Source: Teseptimavirus T7 | Sequence record: PP384396.1 | DNA length: 36,598 nt | Reading direction: 5' to 3' (one strand) | Part shown: in pieces, positions 18,837 through 20,050 of the stretch | Layout of the letters: each line of letters starts with the position of its first letter | Position numbering within the stretch: position 1 is the stretch's first letter | Notes under the pieces: generated by a model | Seen by the model: only the letters and a program-made list of their open reading frames with translations | Told to the model about the DNA's origin: nothing | Database searches by the model: none | Program-made: the position numbers and the translations under genes

Positions 18837-19874
18837 ATGGCTAGCATGACTGGTGGACAGCAAATGGGTACTAACCAAGGTAAAGGTGTAGTTGCTGCTG
18901 GAGATAAACTGGCGTTGTTCTTGAAGGTATTTGGCGGTGAAGTCCTGACTGCGTTCGCTCGTACCTCCGTGACCACTTCTCGCCACATGGTACGTTCCAT
19001 CTCCAGCGGTAAATCCGCTCAGTTCCCTGTTCTGGGTCGCACTCAGGCAGCGTATCTGGCTCCGGGCGAGAACCTCGACGATAAACGTAAGGACATCAAA
19101 CACACCGAGAAGGTAATCACCATTGACGGTCTCCTGACGGCTGACGTTCTGATTTATGATATTGAGGACGCGATGAACCACTACGACGTTCGCTCTGAGT
19201 ATACCTCTCAGTTGGGTGAATCTCTGGCGATGGCTGCGGATGGTGCGGTTCTGGCTGAGATTGCCGGTCTGTGTAACGTGGAAAGCAAATATAATGAGAA
19301 CATCGAGGGCTTAGGTACTGCTACCGTAATTGAGACCACTCAGAACAAGGCCGCACTTACCGACCAAGTTGCGCTGGGTAAGGAGATTATTGCGGCTCTG
19401 ACTAAGGCTCGTGCGGCTCTGACCAAGAACTATGTTCCGGCTGCTGACCGTGTGTTCTACTGTGACCCAGATAGCTACTCTGCGATTCTGGCAGCACTGA
19501 TGCCGAACGCAGCAAACTACGCTGCTCTGATTGACCCTGAGAAGGGTTCTATCCGCAACGTTATGGGCTTTGAGGTTGTAGAAGTTCCGCACCTCACCGC
19601 TGGTGGTGCTGGTACCGCTCGTGAGGGCACTACTGGTCAGAAGCACGTCTTCCCTGCCAATAAAGGTGAGGGTAATGTCAAGGTTGCTAAGGACAACGTT
19701 ATCGGCCTGTTCATGCACCGCTCTGCGGTAGGTACTGTTAAGCTGCGTGACTTGGCTCTGGAGCGCGCTCGCCGTGCTAACTTCCAAGCGGACCAGATTA
19801 TCGCTAAGTACGCAATGGGCCACGGTGGTCTTCGCCCAGAAGCTGCTGGTGCAGTGGTTTTCAAAGTGGAGTAA
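18837..19874 (+). CDS. 10A: Major capsid protein gp10A
   Basis: 345-aa ORF starting [11 protein letters not shown] and ending AGAVVFKVE. Confidence 0.99.
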   Translation: MASMTGGQQMGTNQGKGVVAAGDKLALFLKVFGGEVLTAFARTSVTTSRHMVRSISSGKSAQFPVLGRTQAAYLAPGENLDDKRKDIKHTEKVITIDGLLTADVLIYDIEDAMNHYDVRSEYTSQLGESLAMAADGAVLAEIAGLCNVESKYNENIEGLGTATVIETTQNKAALTDQVALGKEIIAALTKARAALTKNYVPAADRVFYCDPDSYSAILAALMPNAANYAALIDPEKGSIRNVMGFEVVEVPHLTAGGAGTAREGTTGQKHVFPANKGEGNVKVAKDNVIGLFMHRSAVGTVKLRDLALERARRANFQADQIIAKYAMGHGGLRPEAAGAVVFKVE

Positions 19875-20050
19875 TGCTGGGGGTGGCCTCAACGGTCGCT
19901 GCTAGTCCCGAAGAGGCGAGTGTTACTTCAACAGAAGAAACCTTAACGCCAGCACAGGAGGCCGCACGCACCCGCGCTGCTAACAAAGCCCTAATACGAC
20001 TCACTATAGGGAGACCACAACGGTTTCCCTCTAGCAATAATTTTGTTTAA
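18837..20050 (+). CDS. 10B: Minor capsid protein 10B (programmed -1 frameshift product) with C-terminus rewritten by the insertion
   Basis: Slippery region gtggttttcaaag retained at about 19855; the -1 frame after the 10A stop now reads ...AANKA then [19 protein letters not shown] and stops at TAA 20048-20050 inside the inserted promoter/leader, instead of the native ...AANKARKEAELAAATAEQ. Confidence 0.5.
19992..20014 (+). promoter_or_regulatory. Duplicated consensus T7 promoter (engineered second copy of phi10) driving mCherry
   Basis: TAATACGACTCACTATAGGGAGA inserted directly after ...gctaacaaagccc; +1 G at 20009. Confidence 0.95.

Follow-up and report, generated by a model that had tools for sequence, protein, structure and literature searches.

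In bacteriophage T7, about 10% of translations undergo the −1 frameshift that gives the capsid protein 10B (PMC1635266, PMC4177731), and the heptamer GGTTTTC is named as the gene 10 shift site (PMC5009743, PMC1635266). Efficient frameshifting in gene 10 is reported to need CCCC in the Tphi terminator (Atkins et al., PMC5009743). The mechanism of this distal stimulation is listed as unexplained in the same recoding review of 2016, and our literature search for details of the distal element returned nothing beyond that review. In the work of Slootweg et al. 2006 (PMC1635266), wild-type T7 shifts at about 10%, but GGTTTTC followed by a foreign ORF (EYFP) at <1%. T7 display depends on the acceptance of modified 10B C-termini by T7 capsids. 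All 415 copies can carry unrelated peptides of about 50 residues at most, and at low copy number the displayed peptides can be far larger (PMC4177731).

The closest described construct is an engineered T7 genome from the PHEIGES study (Levrier et al. 2024, Nat Commun, PMC10933291). The T7-compilation phage of that study unites three modifications, namely the T7-mini deletions, a ReLPS tail-fiber mutation, and mCherry placed downstream of gene 10, and Supplementary Data 6 gives T7_compile as GenBank PP384396 (PMC10933291). Phages with gp10b-3xFLAG were also made in PHEIGES (PMC10933291).

The DNA analyzed here, referred to as the window, is the whole stretch of 36,598 nucleotides in the record PP384396.1. 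We put at roughly 0.9 the probability that the window is the PHEIGES T7-compile phage and that the −1 frame of its gene 10 runs, as read from the sequence, into a tail encoded by an inserted promoter. By a BLAST map on the T7 reference V01146, the window is a complete genome colinear with T7. It begins at T7 nt 1, ends at nt 39937, lacks three segments, and has gained an insert of 791 nt. Both 160-bp terminal repeats are present (window 1–160 and 36439–36598). The absent T7 segments are 5890–8845, which removes genes 1.1–1.8 including the ligase; 11191–11471, which removes most of gene 3.8; and 13305–14250, which removes genes 4.3–4.7. Short synthetic scars of about 20 nt stand in their place, in line with the 20-nt orthogonal overhangs that bridge the T7-mini deletions. 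The first scar (AATGCGTCATTTTACACGGC) is the 20-nt tail of the T7mini-A-24-as and B-24-s primers, and deletions 11189–11479 and 13305–14251 are listed in the PHEIGES variant table (PMC10933291). The scars and the point differences from T7 are positioned in the window as follows:

5891–5910: deletion scar
8256–8275 (approximate): deletion scar
10102–10120: deletion scar
5971: silent change in gene 2, codon 3 (T7 8906 C>T)
18499: N227S in gene 9, a stock mutation
23840: G780R in gene 12
32907 and 32913: S541R in gene 17 and a silent change in the S543 codon

Both mutations of the PHEIGES stock, 22629 A>G and an additional A after 1896 (PMC10933291), are found in the window. In the variant table, the three compile clones carry gp17 S541R (36246 T>A) and the silent 36252 A>T, and one of these clones also has gp12 G780R (27179 G>A) (PMC10933291); the window shows all three changes. 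The S541R substitution is the ReLPS host-range tail-fiber allele, which was obtained from an error-prone PCR library (PMC10933291). The searched portion of the PHEIGES supplement text does not contain the gene 2 change (T7 8906 C>T). The position of the inserted A should be noted. It lies at window 1897, after V01146 nt 1896. PHEIGES places this insertion, which it found in its purchased T7 stock, in gene 0.7 (PMC10933291); in V01146, nt 1896 lies in the possible gene 0.6B (1636–1972), upstream of gene 0.7 (2021–3100).

Identity with PP384396 was judged from the primers, the scars, and the variant table. In the comparison with the PHEIGES phages T7-mC-g10 and T7-compile, the primers, scars, stock mutations, tail-fiber mutations, and tail mutations all match the window, and no difference was found.

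The arrangement at gene 10 is as follows, where 10B* denotes the predicted 10B protein of the window:

18757–18834, plus strand: native phi10 promoter and gene 10 leader/RBS, repeat copy 1 (colinear with T7 22887–22964)
18837–19874, plus strand: gene 10A, major capsid protein, 345 codons including Met (ORF list and comparison with T7)
19856–19862, plus strand: −1 slippery heptamer G_GTT_TTC at codons 341–342, unchanged from T7
19862–20050, plus strand: −1 frame part of the predicted 10B*, 62 residues after Phe342, stop TAA at 20048–20050 (translation)
19992–20782, plus strand: 791-nt synthetic insert made up of the T7p14 promoter/leader, mCherry, and one duplicated C (BLAST map to V01146 and junction sequences)
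19992–20069, plus strand: phi10-type promoter and leader/RBS, repeat copy 2 (direct-repeat search, 99% identity to 18757–18834)
20071–20781, plus strand: mCherry coding sequence, 236 residues (PDB sequence search, best match mCherry, E=1.9e-161)
20782–20823, plus strand: orphaned native 3′ end of 10B, consisting of the RKEAELAAATAEQ codons and the stop (colinear with T7 24121–24162)
20831–20876, plus strand: Tphi terminator hairpin and T-run, containing CCCC (terminator scan; T7 annotates Tphi at 24210)

The native portion of the locus is preserved nearly to the base. Between window 10121–19991 and T7 14251–24121, there is a single-base difference, at 18499 in gene 9. V01146 places the phi10 promoter at T7 22904. 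The 10A protein of the window is 100% identical to T7 10A, and its 0-frame stop is TAA 19872–19874. The heptamer GGTTTTC at 19856–19862 corresponds to T7 23986–23992. Its TTC forms codon 342 of gene 10A, and on the 3′ side of the heptamer native T7 sequence continues for 129 nt.

The insert itself has junctions that can be assigned exactly. The window is colinear with V01146 up to 19991 (T7 24121) and resumes at 20782, again with T7 24121. T7 nt 24121, the base before the insert, opens the Arg codon CGA that comes after ...AANKA in the −1 frame; the first new codon, CTA (Leu), is therefore a hybrid of T7 and inserted bases. The C at window 19991 is duplicated at 20782, since ...AAAGCCC is the end of the left primer and CGAAAGG the start of the right one. 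The PHEIGES primer mcherry-tt-s has an exact and unique match at 19942–20023 on the plus strand, and mcherry-tt-as has one at 20758–20831 on the minus strand. The second promoter/leader copy carries one A>C change at 20035 that removes an XbaI site, and an NcoI-type start then follows. The designers inserted the reporter after T7 nt 24121 and before nt 24122 to have the native Tphi terminator serve it.

Promoter duplications can arise naturally, and natural acquisition or rearrangement in a T7-like phage has this point, and nothing else, in its favor. The inserted ORF is mCherry, the junctions are published PCR primers to the base, the scars of about 20 nt at the three deletions are synthetic, and the genome matches a published construct. 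The probability of a natural origin is accordingly negligible, and a natural insertion was rejected on the mCherry ORF and on the agreement of both junctions with published primers. This published synthetic origin, with junctions defined by PCR primers, was unrecognized in the preliminary description of the locus. The change in the 10B tail is an unremarked by-product of cloning design in a published laboratory-built reporter phage, and not a natural novelty.

Gene 10 lies between the two copies of the 78-nt promoter/leader repeat (18757–18834 and 19992–20069). If these copies recombined, the essential capsid gene would be lost, and not the reporter. Since Tphi is not duplicated, mCherry would not be removable by simple repeat recombination.

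The consequence of the insertion point for the −1 frame can be followed by translation. The frame is open from 19856 to 20050, with a matching ORF in the ORF list at 19874–20050. In V01146, 10B is annotated as a joined CDS within 22967–24162, and the reference −1 frame ends with ...AANKARKEAELAAATAEQ followed by a stop. This native C-terminus is absent from the window, where it is substituted by residues encoded by the promoter. The extension after Phe342 is 62 residues in the window versus 56 in T7; its first 43 residues are native and the following 19 come from the inserted promoter/leader. Native 10B and the predicted 10B* thus have the first 385 residues in common. The native protein has 398 residues and a mass of 41.83 kDa, whereas 10B* is predicted to have 404 residues and a mass of 42.66 kDa. 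The replaced tail, RKEAELAAATAEQ, is acidic with 13 residues and a net charge of about −1.2, whereas the new tail of 19 residues is basic and partly hydrophobic with a net charge of about +2.8. The distance from the shift site to the 10B stop increases from 170 nt in T7 to 188 nt in the window. Behind the mCherry stop, the 13 codons that were displaced and the former 10B stop are no longer translated. Chance is not an issue for the altered frame, because the frame is a deterministic outcome of the insertion point.

The sequence observations of the preliminary description are upheld in every countable detail. Its statement that the cassette breaks the −1 frame of 10B after ...AANKA is borne out by translation and junction mapping, the new tail with its stop TAA at 20048–20050 is recovered in the −1 frame, comparison with the reference 10B C-terminus gives the same exchange of 13 native residues for 19, and the slippery region, described as intact, is identical to T7. 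Its interpretation is only partly supported, as described below.

The 10B* stop lies 20 nt upstream of the mCherry AUG (20048–20071), just before the mCherry Shine-Dalgarno sequence. Because the −1 frame terminates at the mCherry initiation region, a small share of the reporter output arising by translational coupling is conceivable, by which the 10B* stop may add slightly to mCherry output.

The only deposited relative found with mCherry at the gene 10 locus is T7_mCg10o (PP384393), a sibling PHEIGES design with orthogonal overhangs. It shares with the window the mCherry cassette, the A>C leader variant, the locus after gene 10, and the slippery site. However, its cassette directly adjoins the 10A stop and takes the place of some of the native 10B extension, which is not the case in the window. 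Identity of the window with T7_mCg10o was rejected, since vector and orthogonal-overhang sequence directly follows the 10A stop in PP384393. In that record, the −1 frame (2600–2670) continues after Phe342 with QSGVKTRGKHSKPEPYSTKHS and then stops, giving 21 residues, 4 of which are native. T7_mCg10o would therefore make a different and much shorter 10B variant than the window. The record is annotated with "mCherry, synthetic gene added" and with 10A only, without 10B. In the PHEIGES main text, the word "frameshift" occurs 0 times, and the site is called only "downstream of gene 10" (PMC10933291). Given the lack of a frameshift mention in the main text and the annotation of 10A only in the sibling record, the effect on 10B appears to be undocumented by the designers.

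A ribosome slipping by −1 at the intact G_GUU_UUC would read the 43 native residues and then the 19 promoter/leader residues. It would end at UAA 20048–20050 to give the 404-residue, 42.7-kDa 10B* with a basic tail. The preliminary description held that the altered 10B should still be made. As stated, this is unsupported, since the argument was drawn from the intact heptamer alone and the CCCC of Tphi has moved. Tphi itself is intact, but owing to the insert it lies 969 nt past the shift site instead of 178 nt; in the window, the stimulator is consequently no longer at about 200 nt past the shift site. We consider that 10B* would be made at a level probably equal to or below that of native 10B. 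The level may be lower because the long-range stimulator associated with Tphi is about 0.8 kb further away.

One outcome is that frameshifting is unaffected. In that event, 10B* would reach the native level of about 10%, and the promoter-encoded tail would be present on about 40 copies per virion. Such an outcome agrees with several features of the locus. Both the heptamer and the following 129 nt match T7 exactly, the local hairpin predicted by RNA folding 3′ of the heptamer is identical in the wild-type and window RNAs, Tphi is still on the same transcript, and capsids tolerate altered 10B tails. It is nevertheless rather unlikely in our judgment, considering that the CCCC stimulator in Tphi is displaced from 178 to 969 nt and that a context containing only the heptamer shifts at <1%.

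Slightly more probable is a fall of frameshifting to the basal level of the heptamer (about 1% or less), in which the long-range stimulator would no longer act over about 1 kb, virions would be essentially 10A-only, and the tail would be biologically irrelevant. The involvement of the terminator CCCC according to the Atkins review (PMC5009743) and the <1% shifting found by Slootweg et al. with a foreign ORF downstream (PMC1635266) are consistent with such a fall. The viability of PP384393 with the native extension removed is also consistent with it, since loss of 10B would then cost nothing obvious. However, the p10-EYFP construct of Slootweg et al. is an imperfect proxy, as it is without the native region of about 130 nt 3′ of the heptamer that is kept in the window. 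The folding results do not speak for a need of close spacing either. In thermodynamic folding, the summed probability of pairs between the shift site and Tphi is 0.05 in the wild type. The best duplex between the two is −46.1 kcal/mol versus a mean of −44.6 (sd 5.1) for shuffles, and 36% of the shuffles are at least as good. Essentially no pairing between the shift site and Tphi is thus predicted even in the wild type, and there is no computed support for the spacing being important. A fall to about 1% or less is considered only a tentative possibility.

In a third outcome, 10B* would be made but poorly assembled or degraded owing to its basic, partly hydrophobic tail. The tail charge does change from about −1.2 to about +2.8, with a change in hydropathy. 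T7 display, on the other hand, tolerates far longer foreign peptides and only 19 residues differ here, which makes such a defect improbable. Any 10B* that is made could co-assemble with 10A, because 10B C-termini are surface-exposed and tolerant of change. In a rough split, intermediate levels of 10B* take what remains after near-native levels, levels of about 1% or less, and poor assembly. The displacement of Tphi to 969 nt and the <1% shifting in the Slootweg construct make this range wide, and the amount of 10B* could lie anywhere from about native to about tenfold lower. In the PHEIGES supplement, 36.5 and 41.8 kDa bands are given only for wild-type T7 and the T7C fragment (PMC10933291).

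The phage would be viable at any level of 10B*, since 10B is dispensable. A cost in fitness is noted for T7-compilation (PMC10933291), and both the deletions and the cassette as such have costs of their own. The dispensability put forward in the preliminary description is in agreement with published reports that 10B is non-essential (PMC5592923; PhageMaP preprint PMC11482910).

T7-compile has a further aspect, namely that the phage could be an accidental spacing mutant of the unexplained long-range stimulator of gene 10 frameshifting, with Tphi 791 nt further away. We hold this reading at slightly under even odds. A 10B*/10A ratio strongly unlike that of the wild type would show that the effect of the Tphi CCCC depends on distance, whereas an unchanged ratio would mean that the Tphi effect works over about 1 kb. 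Both results would narrow down the mechanism listed as unexplained in the review of 2016. The phage is in either case a ready-made and cheap reagent to test Tphi-dependent stimulation with 0.8 kb of extra spacing.

The case further indicates that the region called "downstream of gene 10" cannot be treated as neutral in T7. The frame of 10B ends at T7 nt 24162 and the Tphi hairpin starts at 24170, with 7 nt between them. A cassette inserted anywhere from the 10A stop to Tphi will therefore change 10B or the context of the terminator, if not both. Virions of the phage may be without normal 10B; alternatively, as many as a few dozen of their subunits may bear the basic, promoter-encoded tail. An altered 10B could affect surface charge, purification behavior, and antibody recognition, which is relevant to users of the phage and of its relatives in cell-free phage synthesis, synthetic-cell infection work, and imaging.

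Compared with known systems, the locus is the textbook 10A/10B frameshift of T7 in a published synthetic genome, with no new biology. It shares with wild-type T7 the same gene, G_GUU_UUC at codons 341–342, and Tphi on the same transcript. It differs in the tail (13 residues in the wild type versus 19), in the distance to the 10B stop, and in the distance to Tphi. T7Select-type vectors and p10-EYFP likewise have foreign residues at the C-terminal region of 10B, displayed on capsids, and in p10-EYFP the same GGTTTTC heptamer sets the share of modified subunits (PMC1635266). A designed in-frame peptide fusion to 10B was not found in the window, where the native frameshift arrangement is kept. The fusions in T7Select and p10-EYFP are deliberate, whereas the tail in the window is an accidental read-through into the promoter and leader.
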